Shown here one piece after another: positions 8,674 through 36,127 of a DNA stretch of 36,127 bases. The DNA is taken from NCBI GenBank assembly GCA_000934665.2, contig KZ539021.1, positions 1 through 36,127 on the forward strand, written 5' to 3'. The position numbers and the translations under genes are program-made. The notes under the pieces are model-generated. The model was not told the DNA's origin, ran no database searches, and saw only the letters and a list, made by a program, of their open reading frames with translations. Numbering within the stretch: the stretch's first letter is position 1; the number at the start of each line of letters is the position of its first letter. This DNA is from Catajapyx aquilonaris (lineage: Eukaryota).

Positions 8674-11600
8674 CTACATTCATGAGGTTTGAGTGGTAAC
8701 CAATGGTAAAATAAGAAAGGAAAAAGGTAACAGGACAAAGTGGGGGTAGAGGCAGGTAAAGAAAAATATTAGAACAATGCAAATTTATGCTAACACAAAT
8801 GCTGACCATTGCAACATATTTGACAAAATATTACGCAATGATATCAATTTACTGTGCAATAATTCTGCATGAGCAAGTTTTGAAGTTACTGCAAATAAGT
8901 TATGCCCCAACTGGACCAGAAATATATGTAACTTACCAAAGTTTCCTAACAATCACACATATGATACTGTTAAAAGTCATATTCATTTGTTCAAGCTAAT
9001 AAACCACCCGTAGTTTGTACTTGTACACAGCTGAAAGTAGCAGTACATAGAAAATTTTCCAGTGTGGACGGGTCGCCCATGACAGAAATATTTTCTAGGA
9101 ACTGCTCCTTTGTCCAGCCGTGTACCTTGTTAAGACAGGTACGCACATTCTGCATGCCCTTTCCAAAATGGGCAGAAGTTAGTAAAATATTAATCAATGG
9201 CTGCTTTACCTTTTTTGGGCGTCTTCTTAGCTGTACCAAGCTGCCCCGTCACATCTTGTAGCCTCTTCTCCAATTCCTGCTTCTTCTCAGCCATCTGCTC
9301 GTCCTTTGATTTGCCTGCTGCTTTCTTGTCTAAAGGTGAGAAGATATTACACACATAATCCACATAAATCCTGAAAACATCAAGAGCAATCTAGGTGACT
9401 TACAGTAAGGCTTCCGTGGCTTCTTCCGTAAACATGATGCTACGTAAGACTCCAGCTCCCTTAGCGTGGAGGGTTTAAGGGTCTCAAAGTCAATCTCAAT
9501 CTCATCTGGGTTAGAATCCCTTAGCGATGGCTCTCTTGATTGAATTATATGCACTACCCTCCCCAGTTTATCACCTGCAATAAAAAGGTTCCCAGCATTC
9601 ATTAACACAATTTAATATGCCACAATTTCAATTATTTTGATCATCTTGAATAGTGACCAACTTCTCACTGCAGCATACGAATGCATCCCACATACCAGGT
9701 AATTTGTTAATGTCCAGGCTAAGCTGCCGTTTCTCATCATAAGACATAGGTTTGGCATTGTCCTCATCCTCTGAATCCACAACAGCTGGGGTAGCCACAC
9801 TCTTCTTCTTGCTCCTTGACCCAGACGTCTTCGGCCTTTTGGGTTGGGAGCCTGGTGGTTTTGATGATTTAGGTGCTTTGTTTTTCTGAGCCTTGGCGTT
9901 GCCAACTCCAGGTTTCACCTCTCCACCAGGGGCAGCCCCTGGACCACCCACAGATCCTCCAGCACCTCCACCTGATCCACCTCCCCCTAGTGTGGGCTTG
10001 GTGGCAGTAGCTACACTGTTAGAAGCCACTGAGGCGCTAGAAAGGGGGCCGGCAGGGAAGGCATCATTCACTGCAGGTTTCACTTCCTTCTCCTCTTTCT
10101 TGTCCTTCTTCGTCTTCACCTTCTTGTCCTTATCCTTTTTCTTCTTGCCTTTCTTATTCTCCTCCACCAACATCTTCATCTGCTCCTGGACTTGTTTCAA
10201 CTGTATGAGAAAAGAGCAAGTTACACCACAACAGAAGGCGGCTCATATCAAGTACATTTCATGATGCAATAAAGACTGACTGATGAAGTAGCTTCAATGT
10301 GTGAATAATTTCAGAAAGGAGCGTAGTTTCATTAATTTCCAACAAGTCATCCATGAGAATCAAACAAAAATTAAGCATGGTATCTAGGGTCCATTCAAGG
10401 CAGATTTTTACATTACAACAATTCACCTTTTGAAGTTTGACACTTGAAATGCATACACAAAAGTGGCCACCGGCCTGAAAATTATTGTCCTCATCTTAAA
10501 GGATACAAGGAACTTTTACCTCGTGCATAAGAATTCTTCCCCTCCTTACGTGAATACTGACACACCCATTTAAGGGTATAAACATACGAAACAACCATGG
10601 CAACGCCACCACATGATATTTGGTCGCGACACCAAGCGCACTGCCACCACCACGTGTGAAAGGCTACACCATGGTCTTGGAATAGTGAGGTCTGAACACT
10701 CCCCATCTTATCGCCTTAGGGGCCTAACAGGATGTTTTGCGACAGGTGGCCGCTTGATAGCGCTTTTCAGGGCTTCACAAGACTGTGCAACCCTACCGGA
10801 CTGTTCTGAACTTATAGGTAGAAGAGAAGCTACCTATAAGTTCAGAACAGGCCGGTAGGGTCGCACATGTCTGTGAAGCCCTGAAAAGCGTTATCAAGCG
10901 GCCACCTGCCGCAAAACACACTCCGTGTCAAGCCCCGTAAGGCGATAAGAGGGAAGAGACAAGACCTCACTATTCTTAGACCGTGGGCTACACTTGCAGC
11001 AATGCAAAGACGTGGGCATGTCCCAAGAGCACGCCTAAGAGTAATGCGAGGCTGTTGCAAGATTCTAATATCTCTTAATATCATACCCTCTGAAAAAGCC
11101 CAAGCTCCTTCCATCTAGTGCAAGTTGTAGGAAGGGTTCTGAGCCATGAAAGGTACAAATATGACAGGTTTTACTCCTTTAACTTACTTCCTGTCCCCTT
11201 TTCCCAAACCTGTCGGCCAGAAAGCCCATCCCTTGTGCAAGATTTTTTGCCAGGTCAATGTCAAGGCGTGGGCTGATAATTCTTGGATTCATGCATCCTG
11301 AATCTATTCATAGTGGTCAGTGTAAAATTGATGCATCTTTGTCTGCTCAGAATGATCAGGGTGCTCAACGCATGGGCCATAAAACATGGCTACACAGTGA
11401 AACAGTCCCAGTCTTCTGAGCAGGTTCAGACGACGCGCATGATAGCATCATCCCACTACAACATGCTCCAAATTTATAGGCAATCACGTCGTGCTGAGCA
11501 ACAGAAAATTAATTTAAAATCTCATCCTACATAACTAACCTGCTCCTGCAACTGCAACAGTTTTCTCTCCCGGTCTTCCTCCGAATCATCAGTTTCAGAT

Positions 11601-14600
11601 CCTGAGGTGGAACTAGACCCAGAGACAGAAGTGCTGGAAGATGACTTCTCAGCCCCTGTCTCGTTGAGGGTCTCATCTGGTATTTTGGCATACCTGTAAG
11701 GCGCATAACTAAACCCAAATTATTATTTTGTGAGCTTTCTAGAATTGATGCGGCCAAAATAAACAACTCCCATTTTCATGGAAGAGGGACTCTGAACAGT
11801 TATACCCTCCCTCAACACACCTCATCTCGAAGACATCCTGGAGCTTTCTTGCCATTGCTACAACGTCATGATCTGGTGGGTTGTACTTGTAGCAGTTGGT
11901 GAAGATCAGTCTCACATCAGCTGCAAACTCCGCCCCGCTTTTGTACTCTCGATTGTCCATCTTTTGCTGCAGGGGGTAATTGACAGGTCGGTACTGGTTA
12001 CCCCTTTGACTTACACTACTGCAAAGAGCCTCTAATTGTTTTCATTGCCAATACAATGCATTCCACATTCCAAATCCATTAACCACTCTCTATGGCCCGC
12101 ATGAAGTATCATTGACATTGCATTGGCAAGCAGGTAAAATCACCAGTGCAGGATTTGAGGAGTAAAAAGTTTGTCAAGTCACCTTGACATGCACTTTACC
12201 CAAGGAAACAGTGGCTTATGCTCTATTTCCACTTTCCTCTCAACAAACGATTGTCAGAAACATCTACAAATCTTGCCTCTTCATGGCCGGTTTCCACTAT
12301 GCAGTTATCATGACATTCTTTTTAAATACTTGTTACTATTTGTGCTCAAGGCTAAAAAGCCTTCCCAGAACGTCAATGTCAAAGCAAGATTTTTTCTTGT
12401 AGTTATGCAATGTGGAACCCAGGCATGTCCAGAACCCTCGGCTGAACTTTCTTGACATTCACAAAAATTCAGCCAGTGTCATCCAACAGAAGTTTCACAA
12501 AATTTAGAATGGCTGATTGTTGGTTAGAAGCTTGCTGTTTAAACACGATAATGGGACTTCCTAATACACTAATGCACACTCCATATCCTGCCGAGTTCTA
12601 ACTTCCTCTGATGCTACAATCTAGGATTTGCTAACCACTGCCCCTAGTCAAGATATTGGATAATTTCCCGATCTTCTGGTCTCCTGGCATAATATAAATG
12701 TGGATCAAAACGAGTTTTTAAAATGGGAGGAATGGATCAACAGCATCTGAACAACTGAATTTTCACAAGATTCAAAGCTTAATGCCAAAGCAAAGAAATT
12801 AGCGAAGTGATTTCATATACACCAGTCATGGCATTCTCCAAAACACTGGGAATTATTATTGATCTGCATAATAATTCAACTCTTGATCCTTTCCCTCCTA
12901 GACGAGACTTCAAATTAATTGAGCATCTCTCAGTATCCATTAGCCTTGGACCTACGGAACGTCAACAAAAAGAAAACCTATGTATATGCTCCAATGACAA
13001 GCCTTTTCCATCAATTGCATACGTGCATTATTCATACACTTTCAGCCCACCTGAAGCTTTAATGTCATTGCGAATAAATCTTCACCTAACAAATCTTTTT
13101 AACTGTTCTTCTCGCCAGACTTGACATTACCTGACAAATTTAGAATGGCAACCATGCTGATGTTTCAAGGTGATCCAGAAAGAGGGAGAGTCTTGAAAAA
13201 CTCAGTTCAAGGAAACAAACACAATGGATAATTTCCATCAAAACGCATTTTCTTTATTTCCGTTTTTTTTTTCGCACTGTAAACAAGAGGTCGTTAGTTT
13301 GAGCACCTTGTGAAGCATCATGCTTCAATATTCATGACTAGATTTGTTACTGTACAAGGCTGACAAGACTTGCCAGCAAGTTGGACGATAAAATCACTCG
13401 TTACAAAAGCATACAGAGAGTGCCATCATCCCTACATCCCGGCCGCAAAAGAGCAGAGCCACTCAAGATATACTTACACACTTTCAAATCCTCCAAATCC
13501 TTCACTGTCAATAGAAGTGCCAATTCAAGACTGCAGCATCAATTGAGATGCAGGCAGCCTTCAAGTGACAAGACAACCAGAAGAGGAATTTTCCCACACT
13601 AACACTTGACAGTTTCAACCCTGCCCAGAGTTATGTGGCAAAATCCCCCTTCGACCATACTCAAAGTGGAGGATTAATAAAACCAACTTACTTTCACTGT
13701 TCCCAAGTCCATGGGCTTCTTGATAATGTCATGGTAGTCATGAAGTCCCAGAAGTTCGGCATCGACAGGTTTGTAAAATGGCCAGGCATATCCCTATGTG
13801 AGGAGAGATCAGAAGCAATGTTACGATTACATTGCAACTGAACACTGCACTGTCTTGCACCCCATCTTGAACATTTAATGTAATCCATTGCTTCACTAAG
13901 CCATGCTACATCTGTGGTAGACCCAACTTTTATCTCACAAGCAAAACATAAAATTTGCTTGAAACCAAATCCTAATGTATGAGCCACCTCTCCTCTGTCC
14001 ACTTACCGAGTGTTTCTTTGAGAAAAGCTCTTTCAGGATTTCGTTACAGGCTTTGAGGGGCTCTGATAACTTTTCCTTAGGTTTTCCACCACAGTGCTGG
14101 GGCTGCAAAAAGAAGAGGAATACTTGATTTCCTACAGTACCAAATCCCGATATACGTGCAAAAATCCACAGCCTCAAATTTCCCCCCTTGCATTTCATAT
14201 CTTTTAAAAAGTAAAAAATTAAATGTTAGACCAAGTCCCACTTAACTATCATATACAAAGAGGGGAGAGAAGTGAAAAAAGTAAAAAATTAAAATTACAT
14301 CTACCGGCAGCTATTGATTCAAATCATTCAAACAGGATGGAAGAGGAATTATTTTCGAGCAGGTGTGATGCAGGAAGAAGGGGTTAATGCAGGCAGGTCT
14401 CACTGACAGTCCTTTCACTCTCACTCTTTATGTCCCATCCCAATTCCCCACTTGCATGTAACTTGGCTTCCCCTCCCCCCCCTCCCCCCCTCCCACTCCA
14501 CCCTCACCCATCTCCCAAAACCCTCCCCATCTGCAAATCCTCACTCACTCACTCACACACACACACACGAATAGATTGTGTCCTATCTGAACTTACCGCT

Positions 14601-17600
14601 TGGCTTTTATTGAACAATTCTTTTAAGACTGTATTACAATGTCTCAGACTCTCCAAACCGGGCTTCTTAGATTTCAAACTAGGCAGAGGCTAAAAGTTAA
14701 GAAGGAAACAAGTCAAGATTTCACACTGAAAATTCATTCTATTTTGTTTCAACTCTTTCACCCTTGCATTTTTCCCTACTGAGCTTCAACTGGCCAAATC
14801 TCTTCAGCAGGCTACCTTATTGCATGTAGCTCCCTTCTACACACCCTTTTTTTTATAATTGGCTCTTGTGAAATCAAACACGCACCACTCACACTGGAAA
14901 GGATTGACAGTGGATAAAACAGGTAACAGGAATGTCTACCTGGCTTCACCATTTACAATCCTCCAGTTTAATTTTAATTCAGCTACTGTATATTACCAGT
15001 TTTAAAACCCGCTGTTAAAATTAGAGAGAGAAAAACGGTACACAAAAATGTATGTCCTCTTGGGTGGGATATGGGGGAGGAAAAAAATGGAACAGCTCCA
15101 AGTCTTACCTGTGAATCAGGTAGGTCCTTCACAACCTTTTTGATTTGTCTCCCTGACTCCCTCCTGGTGTTGATCTTGGCTGACTTGACCTCTGAGTGAG
15201 GCTGGTAAGGGGCATCATATGCATTCCCCAAGGGAGTTGTCGTGTCTGCTTTTCTCTTCACGCCTTTTTTCACCTGTGGAAGTGAAACAGGAACCATATT
15301 GTAGGACATTAAACCAAAATTGCTTGCCATTTCAAAAACTTTATTAATCCCATACTTATTCCCTTGTCATGACATTCCAGAATTTTCGCTGTTATATTTA
15401 ATTCAAGCATTATGGCCTCAAGCAATAATCTAAACAAAAATGGTTTTGAACCCCCACAGTACACTTGCAAACTATTTCTTAATAATAATTACTGGGCATG
15501 CACAAATACATTTCACATGTGCCTGGTGGACAGAGAAAGCTCAGACGCAATGGCATCATTAGTCTTTGCAGGACTTCTGATATCGACCGCGAATGTTTGG
15601 GTGAAGTTCTCATCATTGCTAACTCTGCAGTCCACCAGAGCGGTTCCCATTCAGTCATCACACAACGGCGCATCATACTTCAGCATCTTTTACCTTGGCA
15701 GGTTGTGAGGGAGGTATCACAGCAGCTGGAACACCTGATGGCTGGATAACAGGTCCAGGCTGTCCATCCACTCCCATTGGTCCCACAGGGGGCGGATGGT
15801 AACCAGCAGCCAAAGGAGCACCCACCTGCAATTAACGACACATTTTAGGCAAGCATTTAAAATCGCAGCTCACTAATTCTTTGATCCTAACATGTACAAG
15901 AGGCATGCAATTCCTGTTAAGACACAATCTCTCATGCCTGATTGCACCAACAAAATTACCAATTCAATAGCTCCTAACAGATTGTTAGCACACCTTAAAA
16001 GGGTGTCCTAACGATCAGTTAGGAGCTATCCAAACAGTAATTTCGTTGGTGCAATCAGGCATCAGTCAGGTATTGAAATACTCAACATTCTGGATATTTT
16101 ACTATGCTGTTGCCACCCCACAACCTTTAATAGTAACACTTCATGTTATGGACAGGTTTCTCTTAACAGCGGATCAAAAAAAATAATTAGCAACCATTTA
16201 AAAGCCGTCAAATAAATGAAAGAGTCATCACCTGTTGCTGCATAGCCCCATGTCCTCCATGGACCATGGCAGGAACAGTGGTGGTGGCAGTGCTCCCAGG
16301 AACTGCACCTGGTGCCATTGGCACCTGAGGTGGGAGGGTTGGAGCAGGCTGCATTGGCGGAGGTGCACCGATACTAGAAGTAAGCCCCATGCTTTGGGCA
16401 TTCATGAGTGGTGGAGGCTGTTGCTGTTGTTGTCCACCCACAGGATGCGACACAGTGGTAGTTGCAGGAGCTGAGATGGGCTTGGGTACCGGATTCACAC
16501 TTTGCACCGTCGATGACACTGACGATGCAGACGTCGACCCAGCCGGCCGACCCCTACCTGGTAGGGCCCCCCCAGCTCCGGCTCCACTTCCAGGAGTTCG
16601 CCCTTTCTTTCCCTTCCCACCCTTAGGTGGAGGTGGCTCCATCTCTACCTCCTCCTTGGGCATCTGCGCCACCTTTGTGAGGAAAAGTTTTTCCAGAGTC
16701 TGTGCCATCACTACCACATCTTCTCCAGGCTTGTTGTACACATAGCAATTGGTGAACATGGTGTTGAAGTCCTGAATGCACTCCTTTGCACTCCAGTAGT
16801 AGTTGTTTTCCAGTCTCCGCTTGATTGTTCCCAGATCCATAGGGTGCTTGATGATACGGTGGTAGTCCTTAAAAATATTTCAGAATTAATCAGTCTCCAG
16901 AATCAGAACTACATCACTCCTTTGTTCTCTTAGTCATGAAACATGAAAAACAAGACCAGAGTACTACAAACGTGACAATTTTGAATCTCAATGTCAACTG
17001 CATCAAATACCTTCAGAAGAACAACCCTTTTACATCACATATGTATTACCTTACTCAAAAGCCCAGCATAAATTGCTTTTACCACTGTCTTTAAAAGCTT
17101 CATCAGAAATACGGCATGTTAACAACACAGATGAAAAGTGTGATAAATAAACCAATCGCAGTCCCAGGGGTCTTTTAAATCTCTAATTTCCATTCTCTGC
17201 AGCTCTGAGATAAGGAAAGGCACTGGTACAGATACCATCTCCTACTAGACAGTTTGCAAGTAGTACTTCGACATTCAATATGCCTGAACAAATGGTTCAT
17301 ATACAGGGTAAAGTCATTCTTGCGGACAATCGCCAGGTAGACAGTACTCGTAAAACTAATACAGAGATGTGCAATCAGTTTTGGGAGCCGTTGCGTAGTT
17401 AATGCGTACGGCGCTGTTAAAGTGTCGAGTGCCAGATGGTAGCATATGACCGAGACATAGACAAAGTGTATGTGTGTCACCAGGTTTTTACTCTGACGGG
17501 ATTTTAATCACCTGTTGCACATGGACAATGCGTTAGGGACCAAGACGGTATCATTTGGAGGTCCTCAAGCTGACTTTTGCTTCTTTGAAACTGGTGGAGC

Positions 17601-20600
17601 AGATGTGACGGCACACAACTTTGAATGCGCCGTACGCATAACTAGGCAACGGCACCCAAAACTAATTGCTCATCCTTATTAATTTCGTGAGTACTATCAG
17701 TCTACCTGGCAATTATTCGTGAGAAGTCCTTCACCCTGTATACACACAAACGTTGAATCTAGTTTGCTAGAGGCAGGGCTTGAAAAACTTACGTATGTGC
17801 TTGCTTCAACTAGATGAATAATTTTCTAGTTCATTTACACAACATTTTCAGCAATGAAGGAAGTGAATGTCATGTTGGCACATGCCAACAATGTCTTAGT
17901 GATTTCATGATTATAACTTGCATGGTGTTAAAAAAATTCATGATGTGGGGAACCAAGTTGTTATCACTCACAATCAGACGCAAACAGGCATCATGTAGGC
18001 GGGACCTATCAGGTATCGACCGCGAATGATTGGCAGAATATATCATCATTTGTGATGTAACCCTTGGTGCCCCACCCTACTGTGACATGTCATTTGCAAT
18101 AAATTTTAGTACAAATACAAAACTACAATTTCCCCAGATTATCGGGCATATGTAGTGAAGGTTTCAGATCCTCAAATCAACTATCATTCAGTTCTGATCA
18201 TTATGCAGAGGAGTAAACATCACTCCAGTGCTCTTTTGGCAAAAATACACACTGACATACCAAAAACCGCATTGAGCCCTATGGTTATGTTTACACCATA
18301 AGTGTGCACATTCCTGATTTTTAAGAACAAATTGATTAACCTTGAACTTGACTTGCGATTCACTTGCTTTCAGTTTCAGCTCATGTGCAATATTTTGTGT
18401 GGCTGCAAGTCATAATTTCTCCATTTTGAGATCTAGCTAGGCAAAAGTAGTGTCACATATTGTCAGCTAATATTGGGCGCAAAAAAATATTGCCAATGAG
18501 ATAAAAATTGACTCTAAAATGTCAAATTTTAAATGTCTAATTCCAACAAGGCATCAAGAGCAAAATCATACTCACTGGGAGATTGAGTTTCCGGGCATCG
18601 ACTGGCTGATGGAAAGGCCATGCAAACTGATGCTTCCATACTGCCTTGAGAACAGTTTTGTGTAGGAACACTAATTGATTTGTCAATCGTCCCTGGCGAT
18701 CGCTGGATGGAATGAACGGAGGCTGAACAATACCATTCACTGGCTCCATGGATGGCTCCTCCCGTGGTGGGGGTTCTTTGGAATCAGCTTTAACAGGTTG
18801 TTCCTATTTGGGAGAAATTCATGTCACTTCGGGGGAAAAAATACACATTCCTAATCACTGGCCAAGGGCACCGATTTTTAATTTATTGGCCAGCGCACCA
18901 TCTTCATTGAGGCATCAGATTTTCACAATATCTTTTACACAGAGTTCAACAATGGCAGGGAGGTGGTTGATTTAGAAAAGTCTCAAACGTGCATTTTACT
19001 TATTGCCTCATAATACACCCTAATATCATGTGTATATCAATATTAGCACAGTCAAAAATGCACATTCTGCCAGTTTCCCCAATTACGGTAATTTTTTGGC
19101 CACGGGGTTTTTCCTTTCAGTATCCAGCAGCTGAAAGGAGGTATTCTACAAAAGCAGCATGGGGAACCATACTGCACTCCCGTCTTGTATACTACACGGC
19201 CTTGGGGGAGGACTAGCCTGGCCTCCAGATGGCATGAGCAGCTCAGACACAAACACATCACAAGGCCTGGGACCTTCGGATGTCGACCGCGAATGTTTGG
19301 GTTGAAATTCTCATCACTGCTAACTCAGCCACTGGCCCTATCTAATTGATCTATTTTTAACCATTACCCTGGTAAGAAGCGGGTAACGATATATACGCTT
19401 AAAAAAATTACGCCGTGGACATACCCAACTTACCACATCGACCTCAATTGAACTCGAGGACCGATCTGGACTCGAACTGCACGAGTCCATACCCAGGTAC
19501 GGGTTGTACATGGCTGCAATCGAACCACAGCCGACCACACCACCATACAACCTCCTCCAAGATCGCACGCCGAAATGGGACGAGCTCCCCACGTCCCCAG
19601 AAGCTTTCGAGGTTATGGTGGAGGGGTCGGGAAGGGGGGATGGGGGGGAAGGGGTCGCGAAGGGTGCTGAACAAAGAGGCAAACGCACCTGGTAGCCTGA
19701 GAGTACGCCCCCTTTTGGTGCTTGCACAACCACCACGGGCGCCGTACCGACCAATTGCGCACACTGGCCTAATCCTGGCTGGGAGATCTGGAGACGGGGC
19801 GCGGGGGAAATACCCAATGATCAGGTCGAATTGTGGAGAGCGTGTTATCTCGATCCGTCACCAGACAAAGCCAGCCTGCCGGATTTTCAGAACTGACTCA
19901 GCAAGGTCAGTACGCCGACAATTCGACGCCGCTCGACCCTTTTCCCCCTCCCTCCATGTACTTATCGCAATGCACGTACCGGTTTGAATAGCCTGAAACC
20001 AACTTCCAGAGTATTTTCGGCGCCCGAAAGTCGTCACTAACGTGGTTCTCTGGCGCCCGTGCGCACGAAAATTCATGATCTTCGAAAAAAGGGGTCACTG
20101 GGGCTCAAAATACAAGCCCGCGGCCCCGTTTTTGAACATGTCAAGACATATTATATGATACACTGGCAATTATGATCAGCTGTGGCAGTACGTACTCACA
20201 GGTCAGCCACAAACTGCTCAACATCCGAGCATGGCAATGACTTCGTTGTCAGCTTGGCGTGCGTGTTCGTCACCCGAGATGTGCTCACGTAATACTTGAA
20301 TAACCCCAGCAGGGTAGACAAGGAATTATCAGCCCCATTGATGCGCGCATGAATAAGCGAGGAGCCCATTATCACAAAGCTGGCTGCCGTTATCAACACC
20401 CTGAATGCCACGAAACAGCATACGTTTCTCTCTCGAGTGCCACGCCGCTCAATGCTGGATGATTCAGATTCCTTTACTCGGCCACATGGCCCTTCGTTAT
20501 TTGCAGAATCTTACACATGTGCCAAGTGTCGATAACACCGGTGCTCGAGCCGACGACGACGTGGAGCTTCTGCAGTACAGTACTATCGCCGGAACAAAGC

Positions 20601-28930: not shown

Positions 28931-30219
28931 TAATGACTTACAGTTGTATCACGGGGTAATTTTTAAACAAATATTTGTTGATTTGGTAGTTATAGGCTAT
29001 CCAGGAAAACACTGCATAGGTTTTCAGGAGTTTTGAAGTCGAGTTGCCAGGCGCAAAAGGAACCGGGAATATCCCACATCCACGTTTAAAAAATTTTTAA
29101 AAACCCACTTGGCTACTCCAATCTTCATGGTAAACATATGGGCTTGGGGGGGGGGGGGGNAACCCATCTAATCCCCGCAGTCTTTTCTTGGTTTCCCTAT
29201 AACTCGAGATATGCTTGTACATTAATTGCGGGCCTCTCCAGTCTGTCCTAACAAATAGTTCCTCAAGTTCCACTTAGCCTGTTTTTAACACACATTCATA
29301 GAACTGACCCTAAAATGGATACAATTATATAGATAAATGCACAATACTGTTTGCACAGTGGCTGCCTTCCTATTACGTACTAAGTGGGCTACAAAAAGCA
29401 CAACACAAATCAGTTTTACCAAACAGCATGGGACTCTTGCAATGTGCTATAAAAATCAAAACGAAAATTCCTGCATGTTCCAATCACTACACGTGGTCCT
29501 TTGAAATGCACAAAAGTTGAAAATTGGTGATTCATTCTCCAATTGTGCCTCATTAGCAATGCTAGTGTGCTTATTTAGAACAAAAATGTATGCTAGTGCC
29601 CAAAGTAGATATACAGAATAAGCATCCTACAGATCCTGTCATTTTAGTTGATTGGTTTTAAGAGTCCTTCTGTAATTATTCAGTTTTTAAATAGAAAATA
29701 GTTCCAGCTCAAATCATTTTTTAAACAAAATTCGGAAAAATTCATCAGAACATTTACTGTCCCAATGACTTTCTCAACATTATGAATGGCCCCCACCATG
29801 TCATGTCCACTAACCAATGAAATAAAGGAGTTTATAATTCTCCTTTCTAAAGATTATCATAAATAACTCACTTCGGCATAATGATTCCTGAACAAGGTCA
29901 AGTCTACATAGATTTTTCCCTTGTTCCCTTCTGCATGAGAGATGCGTGGTTGCAAGTAGTTCTTCTTTACATTAAGGAAGTCTCATAACTGCAGAACCCT
30001 GTAAACAAAAAGAAAACAATTCTACACTATAAAACTTAGAAACTATCTATCAACTGTGACAAACCAGTTATCACTATTTTCAAGTGATCACATGGAGCAA
30101 GTCACAGGTTTCATATCGATAATGTAATTCTACCTTTCACATGTAGTGGATTGGTGCACACCTACACTACAAGTGCATCCCTCACAATTGTGACACTGAC
30201 CTCCATGACCCCCCCCCCC

Positions 30220-30243
30220 NNNNNNNNNNNNNNNNNNNNNNNN
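30220..30243. other. Assembly gap (N run) inside a poly-C tract
   Basis: 24 Ns; single Ns also at 29160 and 30526 next to homopolymers. Confidence 0.99.
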
Positions 30244-32604: not shown

Positions 32605-35199
32605 TTAGACAACTCTCTCCCCCCTCCCTTTTGCATCAGAATCTCCCAAGTACTTTTTTTTTTAAATCCTTGTTTTGAACCACACACATGGGCATGGTGC
32701 GGTCTTCTGGCAGTAGGGACCACTGATGTCTGCTGATGCCTGCTGCAAACTGCATTAATATTTACAAATGCAGACTCCGTTCGTAGCAACTTGCATAAAG
32801 AGGCAGGGAGGCAAGGAAGTGTCTTAACACACGAGCTGTTCCTACACCCTATAATAAATGTGATGCAATTGCAGTCATGTAAACTGAGGGTAGGATGAAC
32901 AAGTTATCCTATTTATTAGCCAAAAATGCCTACTTTTTTTTGCATCTATTAGTAACAAAGCCAATGCCAATTTAACTGCATTGCATTTGACAGATGAAGG
33001 ATATAAATATCAGTAAACAGATGTGTCATGTTTTGTGGACTGGCATGTGCAATTTGAAACTGATACATGGCAGATTATAATGCACACACAAGTTTTACAA
33101 ACTAGATTAATTTATTTTAAAATGTTTCCAAAATAACTGCACTTATTGATCATAAAAAATTCATGAACTACAGGCAGGCGTGATTTGAATGCCAGGAGAA
33201 TTAACATGGTTTTGGAGTGCCTTTGACAGTAATGACTTAGTCTGTGGTCATACATCTCACCAAACTGAGATAATGTGAGCCACACATCGAATACAGACAA
33301 TACACTAATCCTATTATCATTGGTTACCCCATGACAGGCCTGTTGCCACAAAGATTACCACCATCCTTTATAACATTTGAACAGCAGCACCATCTGGCAT
33401 CCATTTTTGGTTGGCCAGCTCCATTGAACCCTGCCTTCCTGTCTCCCACAATTACTGGACATTCATGAAGGTATTATGCTACTGCATATTTTAGAAACTT
33501 TTTGATGAAACACAATCTTTTCCTTCACTCTCTGGGCAGGGTTTGATAATTTTAAACCCTAATAAAAATGGTGCCATTTTGTATTTTTCTCTAATTTAGA
33601 AAGGAGTCAGCAACAAAATCTGCAGGCTTCTTAAATTAATTCTATGTATTGTAGTGGATAAAATTGCATTCAATATCTGCATCTCAGGTTCAGCTATAAG
33701 GCTACTGCAGTTTGGATTGAAGCTCAAACAATCAGAAGTGTCCAACAGGTGTAAGATCATCAGCAGTATTTTGATTTTTTAATAGTGTGCCCACTTTTAA
33801 ATGCAACCCACACTAGCACCTGTGTTGGTGGTGCCCTCTGGCCTGGTATGGGTCATTGAACTAGGAAAACTCCAGGGGCTAAGCCAGGTCCTAAGAAGAA
33901 GCAACCCTTTTGCTGTGTATCTCCAGGCCTACCCTTTAGTGACACATGGGCTGCCAGATATTCCCACCCATGGGGCTGGTACTCAGCATTCAGTATGTCT
34001 TTCTGTTTCTGTGTACTGTAGTTATTGACAATAAAATTGTTTTTAAACCTTACAAAGAGGCTCACTACATTCATTCTTGACCAGAAAATGTTTGGGTACC
34101 CAACCATATTGAAATTGGGTCAAGGTCAGCTGCCTTTTTTTTAGGTCTGATTTTTATTCATGGCAGGAGAGGCCTTATTTTTCCGCACAGCGGTGGTCAA
34201 ATATTTCGTTTTTCTAGCGACACAATACTAAAAATCCGCAAACAGCAGTACTTTTTTCAAAAAACTAGTGTTTCTGCAACATTTTTTAATTCACTGCTGT
34301 GTCAGTACGACATACACCCTGCATTGGTGACAATATGGACGAATTTATCTGTGCACTTGCATTCTAACTTACAATTTGATTTGCACCTAAACACAACTTT
34401 CATTGGGATTGAATTGCAAAGTTATATTATTTATTTTTATTAAAACTCACTGCCTTCATATCAGGATTCAATCACATGGCCTTACTCCATTGCTCCCCTT
34501 ATAATCCCGCATTCAACATGCCAGAAATATATCACACCAGCTATGTGGTCAGTTGCATTGTTGGGGTCAAGATTGTGTGTGCACTAACAAACCCTACCAT
34601 ATTTCCTTGCGGGATCCCCAGCATCACTCCTGCAGTATTGCGTGAGCTATTCACACTAGCCCACCTCACCACAAAAACCCAAGTCACCAAACTGACATAC
34701 AAAGGCTCCACCACATGCCAACTCACATAACTGTCAATAATGACAGCTCCCATATCCATCATCTATTCGTTTTCTGCTACAGCCAATGCACAGTCCAATA
34801 CTAGGGCTAACAAGCGCAGGTGGTGCACTATTTTATAGGATGAGCTCATCTTGCACAAAGGGGGCAATTTTCAAGCTACATGGATTCCAGCATATGCCAT
34901 TCCATCCACCTTTCCATCCAGACCTCTCATACGACTCAAGAAACCAGTTCCAAGCGGTCCTTCCACACACATACACACATACCCAGGACACAAAAAGACG
35001 TCAACCTCCAAGCCAAGCTGACTACCCCACCCATCTTGCTCCCTCTCTACCCACCCCCGCCTCCCCCACCCTTGTTCCAATATTTCGGCATTATGCAACT
35101 CCCGAAATTCAACCCCCTACCCCGGCCGATTGCAGTCCTCCCGAAAATATCACCTCCGGAATACGGGTCCTACGTTCAAGAGAGTTGGGTCAGTCGAGG

Positions 35200-36127
35200 G
35201 TGGGGTCCGAGCGGCAGTTTCCCACTGAGGCCAGCTTCGGGGGGGGACCTTGACCAACATGGCGGCCGGGGGAAGTGAAAAAAGGGAAAAGGACCCGAGT
35301 CGAGAGGCGCTGGGCCCGGGCATGCAGGCTCCTACCCCCCAGCTTCGACTCGCCCCGGCATCACAAGGGCCTACCCGTCAATCCTGGCCAGTTTTCGTAG
35401 GGCAATCGGGCCTTTCAAGAGCACCAGGGCGGCCTCAAAGCGGGTCTGGAACGTCCCTCCCTTGTAAGCGCCTCTGAATTGGGTTGGGTGGTGGGCCCCG
35501 GGCCGGGTCCCCCCTTCTACAATCTATGATCAGAAAAGGGTTCATTACCCTCCTCTGGCGGCGTCCCGTCTCGGCCCTTGGGTCGGATGGCCCCGCTTGT
35601 CCATGATAAGGCCGGATTCCGTCGCCGAAGCTCCGGGAAGCCGAACCCCCCTAGACACAAGCTGCAATGGCTGCCGTTCCGAACACCCTCTCCTCCCCCC
35701 CCTACCCCCTGCCCTCTCTCTGCCAGCTACCCTCTCTGCTCTCCCCTGCCCAGCCCCCACCCCACCGCCTCACCCTGTCACCCCCGGTCTCTTCCAACTC
35801 TTTGCGATTTCCGTGGCTCCCATTGGCCCCCTGGAGTCACGTGGGCACCCGCCTCGGGACGGAGGGGGTCTGGGATGAGGGCGGCCCGCACCAGGGGCGG
35901 CCCAGGGGAGGGCCGACGAGGGTCCCCTCGGATGGAGTAAGGGCAGAGGGTGGGACATAACGCGGGCTGGGAGGCTAGGGAGCTGGCAGTCGAGCGCAAG
36001 GAAGAGGGCGAGTGGCGGAGTGATCGGCGGATGACGACGCCATTTAGGAGGGGGTCACGTGACCACGGAGGGGAGGGAGAGTGCCGCACGGGATTGTGGG
36101 TAATTCTGGGGAGCTGATGGGAGGGGG
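35200..36127 (-). promoter_or_regulatory. GC/CpG-rich promoter/first-exon region, probably of the BET gene
   Basis: Sharp rise in GC and CpG relative to introns; YY1/Pho-type CAACATGGCGGC at about 35255-35266; candidate donor GG|gtaatg at 35549. Confidence 0.55.

Follow-up and report, generated by a model that had tools for sequence, protein, structure and literature searches.

Three short U14-like box C/D snoRNAs with domain A and no domain B in introns of a BET gene of Catajapyx aquilonaris

Three short and diverged copies of one element lie in separate introns of a BET bromodomain gene on contig KZ539021.1 of Catajapyx aquilonaris (assembly GCA_000934665.2, positions 1 to 36,127; this 36,127-nucleotide (nt) stretch is called the window here). 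[quoted passage not shown] The locus raises the question of what such RNAs are: a reduced U14, methylation guides of another kind, or remnants. The explanation favoured here, with a probability of roughly 0.75, is that the three elements are paralogous genes for an arthropod short form of U14 (SNORD14), in which domain A has been kept and domain B has been lost.

The anatomy of the copies is that of box C/D snoRNAs. The order of parts is the same in all of them: 5' stem arm, box C, spacer, box D', hairpin, box C', pre-D stretch, box D and 3' stem arm. In 3/3 copies, RUGAUGA lies close to the 5' end and CUGA close to the 3' end, a terminal stem brings the two together, and internal D' and C' boxes are present. 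In copy 1, the boxes read AUGAUGA (C, 15616-15610), CAGA (D', 15579-15576), UGAUGC (C') and CUGA (D, 15544-15541). The corresponding motifs are AUGAUGA, CUGA, UGAUGC and CUGA in copy 2, the most diverged of the three, and GUGAUGA, CCGA, UGAUGU and CUGA in copy 3. The terminal stem of copy 1 has 5+3 base pairs (bp) in the minimum free energy fold (CAGAG/CUCUG and AGC/GCU), while a generic C/D scan gave 6 bp for copy 2 (UCACAA/UUGUGA) and 4-5 bp for copy 3 (AGCAG/CUGCU).

The spacer after box C is 30 nt long and closes with an invariant 13-nt element, CATTCGCGGTCGA, followed by three further nucleotides before D'. This element consists of the 10-nt core of domain A, CAUUCGCGGU, and the trinucleotide CGA, and it aligns to CAUUCGCAGUUuC of the Rfam consensus. 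The hairpin between D' and C' measures 13-16 nt across the copies, and the gap from C' to D is 8 nt in copies 1 and 3 and 10 nt in copy 2. UCGA was also considered as the true D' box; it was dismissed, since the hairpin with the compensating changes adjoins C[A/U/C]GA instead.

The comparison between copies indicates which parts have been retained. Exact matches to CATTCGCGGTCGA number three in the window, all on the minus strand. With up to two mismatches allowed, dinucleotide-preserving shuffles (n=100) gave a mean of 0.17 matches, and 1/100 shuffles reached three. A profile built from the three copies (nhmmer, whole window) recovered only those three, with E-values from 1.6e-27 to 8e-24, the next match having an E-value of 0.21. 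Both strands were also scanned for a box C followed 45-140 nt later by a box D, with at least four contiguous terminal pairs. This generic scan returned copies 2 and 3 only, copy 1 being missed because its box-proximal stem has three pairs and four were demanded. Neither the profile search, nor the generic scan, nor the Rfam scan found further copies or other snoRNAs in the window.

Similarity between the copies ends at most 7 nt beyond the snoRNA ends when flanks of 400 nt on either side are included (blastn). The 13-nt element is identical (13/13) in each of the three copy pairs, and box D is the same in 3/3 copies. Box C agrees at 6/7 or 7/7 positions per pair and differs only at its first, purine position. 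Over the same three pairs, identity in the D'-C' hairpin is 1/16, 8/16 and 5/14, and in the 3' flank 1/10, 5/10 and 0/10. Four pairs of this hairpin are nevertheless maintained through two-sided changes (RNAalifold), and the terminal stems, although variable in sequence, are present in 3/3 copies. With invariant boxes and an invariant 13-nt element beside a near-random hairpin and near-random flanks, the pattern of substitutions is that of old duplicates under purifying selection on the boxes, the stems and one antisense element. The earlier description of three C/D paralogues in separate introns, with C, D', C' and D boxes and an invariant element, is borne out, at a length of 84-85 nt.

The family to which the copies belong was sought in Rfam. 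A permissive search of positions 15300-19600 (E<=10) gave 8 matches in all, among which SNORD14 (U14, RF00016) was the only snoRNA family; a full-length match to some other snoRNA family, proposed earlier as a check, did not appear in that search. The SNORD14 model matches 3/3 copies end to end (model positions 1-111), at 22.8-25.8 bits and E-values of 0.044-0.31. The alignments run through the stem, box C and the spacer up to the consensus CAUUCGCAGUUuCCaCCuaAg, almost gap-free as far as D'. From there, 52-53 model positions are passed over, with 25-28 nt of sequence in their place, until the alignment picks up again at box D. What the copies share with U14 is therefore its 5' half, without the 3' half that bears domain B, and this missing half accounts for the low score. 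Both distances of domain A, to box C and to the D'-type box, agree with the Rfam consensus. The proposed likeness to U14, including the position of the element 6 nt ahead of a CAGA-type box, is supported.

Domain B is absent, as had been claimed. A domain-B motif followed by box D has no match in the window at up to three mismatches. Nor does the window contain any stretch of 12 nt or more that is antisense to the region targeted by domain B, as taken from metagenome 18S loci. The guide that would stand just 5' of box D for 18S C462 (human) or C414 (yeast) is lacking, and a C'-to-D gap of 8-10 nt is too short for one. The 8-mers before box D were considered as a mini-guide beside the old domain-B site and rejected as chance. 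When G-U pairs are permitted, those of copies 2 and 3 do find a partner some 22 nt downstream of the domain-B target (32/35 and 35/35 loci), but 123/300 and 166/300 shuffled 8-mers do equally well, and the 8-mer of copy 1 pairs in 1/35 loci. No separate snoRNA guiding the domain-B site was found within the 36-kb window by motif, antisense and generic C/D scans.

The 18S ribosomal RNA (rRNA) used for the comparison came from metagenome contigs. At least 100 18S loci in these contigs match a 24-nt pattern composed of the complement of the 10-nt core and the conserved 18S sequence following it, which makes a variant with perfect pairing to CAUUCGCGGU a common one. Complementarity to the core in 100/100 of the loci listed follows from their having been picked by that site. 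At one position of the core, the copies carry G where the Rfam domain-A consensus has A, and the matching U-to-C variant of the U14 site is present in at least 100 of the metagenome 18S loci. Provided that the host species has this variant, the A-to-G change in the core would be one half of a two-partner change that preserves the pair. The arthropod 18S sequence given in the earlier note is consistent with the metagenome loci.

Methylation by box C/D snoRNAs occurs opposite the fifth nucleotide upstream of box D or D'. The duplex between 18S and the core would start 7 nt upstream of D', leaving the fifth position unpaired. For this reason, no methylation is predicted from domain A, as in known U14. 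Watson-Crick complementarities of at least 9 nt were also collected against 14 long ribosomal DNA (rDNA) loci, where the U14 site was the only one common to all copies (14/14 loci). A second rRNA target common to the three copies was not found among these complementarities. RNAduplex, run with the 30-nt spacer against 8/14 of the long loci, returned many sites between -20 and -28 kcal/mol and did not discriminate among them, the U14 site being left unranked.

Short U14 RNAs of this kind have precedents. Fly U14 is described in the passages on U14 in PMC6315972 and PMC3273799 as lacking domain B, the corresponding 18S nucleotide being guided by another box C/D snoRNA. A statement in PMC6461891 lists domain B as missing in "Euglena, Tetrahymena, and Diptera", and in all three papers the passages concerned credit Yuan et al. 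2003 for the fly U14. Table S6 of PMC11014333 gives snoRNA:U14:30Ea and 30Eb (renamed CD9a/b) as RNAs of 81 and 80 nt with the non-coding host Uhg2, one an "orphan" and the other with a weak 28S-Gm1005 prediction. In Table S4 of the same paper, Drosophila melanogaster 18S-Cm419 is assigned to FBgn0086533 and not to U14, and it is aligned with human C462/SNORD14 and yeast C414/snR128. A control assay for Drosophila U14 gave no signal in ticks, according to a passage of a tick study. In a limited literature search on crustacean and arthropod U14, no short U14 came up for an arthropod outside the Diptera.

The Drosophila pair and the copies described here are alike in several respects. Both are short box C/D RNAs (81/80 nt against 84-85 nt), and the copies fit the fly type, which is about 80 nt long and retains domain A but not domain B. 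The fly RNAs are likewise described, in the passages cited above, with domain A and without domain B. Both sets have no confident methylation target, both occur in more than one copy in introns of one host gene, and in Drosophila the U14-type 18S methylation is given to another snoRNA in the tables cited. The hosts differ, being the non-coding Uhg2 in the fly and a protein-coding BET gene here, with three copies in three introns.

Compared with canonical U14 (RF00016; yeast snR128, human SNORD14A-E), the copies share box C, box D and a terminal stem, the place of domain A after box C, a core of domain A equal to the Rfam consensus at 9/13 positions and a D'-type box 6 nt beyond the 10-nt core. 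They differ in having neither domain B nor Y domain, in being about 25 nt shorter, and in CGA, three of the 13 domain-A positions, which is mismatched to the 18S site. Domain A alone is also described for U14-like candidates of Tetrahymena (TtnuCD25 and TtnuCD32) and Euglena. For TtnuCD32, 10 consecutive base pairs with its small-subunit rRNA site are reported, equal to the length found here, and TtnuCD25 is said to retain the Y-domain hairpin, unlike the copies in Catajapyx. The protist candidates have other hosts and another gene organisation and, since these lineages are distant, their loss of domain B was probably independent. A domain-A-only architecture of U14 is therefore real but ordinary, having already been described in fruit flies, a precedent that the earlier note overlooked. 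Its proposal of U14-like RNAs with domain A, without domain B and in a BET host is otherwise supported as far as sequence can carry it.

Several points weigh against the assignment to U14. The Rfam scan of the window at gathering thresholds gave zero matches, and the SNORD14 scores of 22.8-25.8 bits lie far below the gathering score of 64. The three SNORD14 matches are paralogues and hence do not count as independent support. Pairing at the 18S site extends over 10 nt only, CGA occupying the three positions over which the consensus goes on pairing. The 14 long rDNA loci were chosen for carrying the U14 site, which makes the presence of the match circular; that comparison is therefore silent on site presence and informative on a second shared target. 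Finally, the likeness to Drosophila U14 is drawn from published descriptions and lengths.

The part of the invariant element that U14 does not explain is CGA, which, together with largely the next two nucleotides, is unchanged in the three copies. The three nucleotides upstream of the 18S site are, among the 100 loci listed, GAA in 98, AAA in 1, GAG in 1 and TCG in 0. The remark in the earlier note that CGA mismatches 18S is accordingly correct, 0/100 of the loci listed carrying its complement. By a rough estimate, the chance conservation of three extra nucleotides amounts to a few per cent, which is suggestive, and weak with three paralogues. It is unlikely that the whole stretch of 13-16 nt guides D' methylation of another RNA or makes a second contact. 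One form of this, in which CGA(U/C)A is functional and domain A has turned into a D' guide, or contacts pre-rRNA a second time, on a non-classical target to which it is complementary over 13-16 nt, is a slim prospect; if it were true, a single RNA would be both a U14 chaperone and the guide of a lineage-specific modification.

Taken as ordinary D'-guided methylation snoRNAs, the copies would pair through CAUUCGCGGUCGA(U/C)A with some RNA containing UCGACCGCGAAUG, and 2'-O-methylation would fall on the C that faces the fifth nucleotide upstream of D', the likeness to U14 being reused ancestry or coincidence. This is quite unlikely, although the invariant stretch does span position 5 upstream of D', the succession of D', hairpin and C' resembles a working internal C'/D' motif, and CGA, which 18S does not explain (complement in 0/100 loci listed), is invariant even though copy 2 is saturated in its unconstrained parts (hairpin 1/16, 3' flank 1/10). 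The target is what such a reading lacks in the material searched. The metagenome collection contains no match to a 27-nt pattern in which the full 13-nt complement stands at the 18S site. Across 361,200 nt of metagenome rDNA-bearing loci, the 13-mer, at up to two mismatches, has no site that does not need at least one G-U pair, and most sites need 3-5; the perfect 13-nt alternative rRNA target, for which the earlier note had suggested a check, is thus absent from these loci. To this are added the lack, in the 14 long loci, of any second complementarity (9 nt or longer) common to the three copies besides the U14 site, and the small weight of three extra conserved nucleotides among three paralogues.

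A dual role, in which the 10-nt core serves a U14 chaperone while a second, lineage-specific task falls to CGA(U/C)A, is very unlikely. The second task might be a contact with a pre-rRNA spacer or a protein, or an intramolecular masking of domain A until the small nucleolar ribonucleoprotein (snoRNP) has assembled. RNAalifold does pair CGCGG of domain A with a U/G-rich stretch before box D in 3/3 copies, copies 1 and 2 also show this CGCGG pairing when folded singly, and the invariance of CGA would find a reason. These folds, however, do not surpass those of shuffles (z -0.9 to -2.0), two-sided changes are lacking in the intramolecular pairs, and G/U-rich 8-mers pair promiscuously. Most improbable of all is decay, that is, snoRNA-derived intronic duplicates that are silent and no longer expressed or assembled. 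The D' box differs in each copy and C' is off consensus at its last position, as decay would have it, but against random flanks the boxes C (except for the first purine) and D agree between the copies, as does the 13-nt element, and compensating changes have preserved the stems, a pattern expected of continuing selection on 3/3 copies.

The host is a minus-strand BET gene, an orthologue of fs(1)h/BRD2-4, with two bromodomains and an ET domain in Pfam, which confirms the host named in the earlier note. The coordinates of the copies and exons are collected in Table 1. Among named proteins, fs(1)h/BRD2-4 of insects and crustaceans come closest, which indicates an arthropod source, and the bromodomain-1 exon shows about 55% identity over 89-96% of the query with insects and decapods alike; a relatives search with the C-terminal exon returned none. 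The ATG-containing exon is bounded by an acceptor AG at 18805-18804 and a donor GT at 18575-18574. Arthropod BET proteins match 18576-18779 of it and 16661-16867 of the following exon (tblastn), and the junction from 18576 to 16867 falls at LP/DYH. After the small exon, the next one begins at 15273, the joined reading agreeing with an arthropod BET protein (tblastn). Further downstream, bromodomain 2 is found at 11739-12041 (Pfam Bromodomain E 2e-11) and the ET domain at 9330-9611 (Pfam BET E 6.3e-17) and 9628-10242 (E 1.8e-4). A segment at 13692-13793 (minus strand) matches the bromodomain start of arthropod BET proteins (tblastn, 68-71% identity over 33-34 amino acids) and is probably the first half of bromodomain 2.

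Table 1. Coordinates of the snoRNA copies, their invariant elements and the exons of the host gene
Feature	Position	Strand	Length	Details
snoRNA copy 1	15537-15621	minus	85 nt	SNORD14 match 22.8 bits, E 0.31; nhmmer E 6e-26
snoRNA copy 2	17970-18053	minus	84 nt	SNORD14 match 23.3 bits, E 0.22; nhmmer E 8e-24
snoRNA copy 3	19239-19322	minus	84 nt	SNORD14 match 25.8 bits, E 0.044; nhmmer E 1.6e-27
Invariant element CATTCGCGGTCGA, copy 1	15583-15595	minus	13 nt	exact match
Invariant element CATTCGCGGTCGA, copy 2	18016-18028	minus	13 nt	exact match
Invariant element CATTCGCGGTCGA, copy 3	19283-19295	minus	13 nt	exact match
BET exon	18576-18803	minus		likely ATG 18749-18747; first half of bromodomain 1
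BET exon	16232-16867	minus		second half of bromodomain 1 and linker; Pfam Bromodomain E 2e-18 (open reading frame piece 16208-16879)
Small BET exon	15694-15825	minus		ends ...PPSQPAK; splice sites read
Downstream BET exons	9330-12041	minus		bromodomain 2 and ET domain

Copy 1 lies in a 420-nt intron (15693 to 15274), 72 nt past the 5' splice site, and copy 2 in an intron of 1708 nt (18575 to 16868). Copy 3 precedes the acceptor of the ATG-containing exon by about 434 nt and would therefore sit in an intron of the 5' untranslated region, the 5' end of which we infer only; GTAAGT near 19433 (minus strand) is a candidate donor on the same footing. The segment 19330-19900, just upstream of copy 3, is rich in G+C and CpG, with long open frames on both strands, as is 35000-36127. 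The former may hold the BET promoter and a first non-coding exon.

The BET intron from 16231 to 15826 contains no snoRNA. It carries, at 15929-16067, a long near-perfect inverted repeat that gives sub-threshold matches on both strands to several unrelated microRNA (miRNA) models of plants and animals (MIR6288, 41.3 bits against a threshold of 74; MIR5048, 30.3 against 160). This repeat looks like a foldback element of the miniature inverted-repeat transposable element type, not a miRNA gene. Two other hairpin-forming stretches, 950-1074 and 10759-10892, also have sub-threshold miRNA matches on both strands (mir-2483, 49.9 bits against 75; mir-231, 44.1 against 50, the nearest to its threshold) and are probably further foldback repeats in BET introns. 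Runs of N at ~29100 and ~30190-30220 are assembly gaps.

If the copies are a short U14, as favoured here, their life would begin in the introns of the fs(1)h-type BET pre-mRNA, from which the RNAs would be released by splicing and then trimmed to the terminal stem. Each RNA would assemble into a box C/D snoRNP, and its core CAUUCGCGGU would bind the nascent pre-rRNA by pairing within the 5' domain of 18S. The snoRNP would act there as a folding and processing chaperone, aiding early folding and the cleavages that yield 18S, and not as a methylation guide. This role is proposed because it is established for yeast and vertebrate U14, whose function in 18S maturation is summarised in a passage of PMC6315972. 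The methylation that domain B directs in yeast and human U14 would, by analogy with Drosophila, be guided by a separate snoRNA encoded elsewhere in the genome.

A short U14 in Catajapyx would add a case of split U14 outside Drosophila, with the processing element and the methylation guide carried by separate snoRNAs. It would also be a U14 hosted by a protein-coding chromatin-reader gene rather than by a non-coding snoRNA host gene. The practical value concerns annotation, because the short form falls below the SNORD14 threshold of Rfam and is missed by it; arthropod annotations that use gathering cut-offs probably lack their essential U14.

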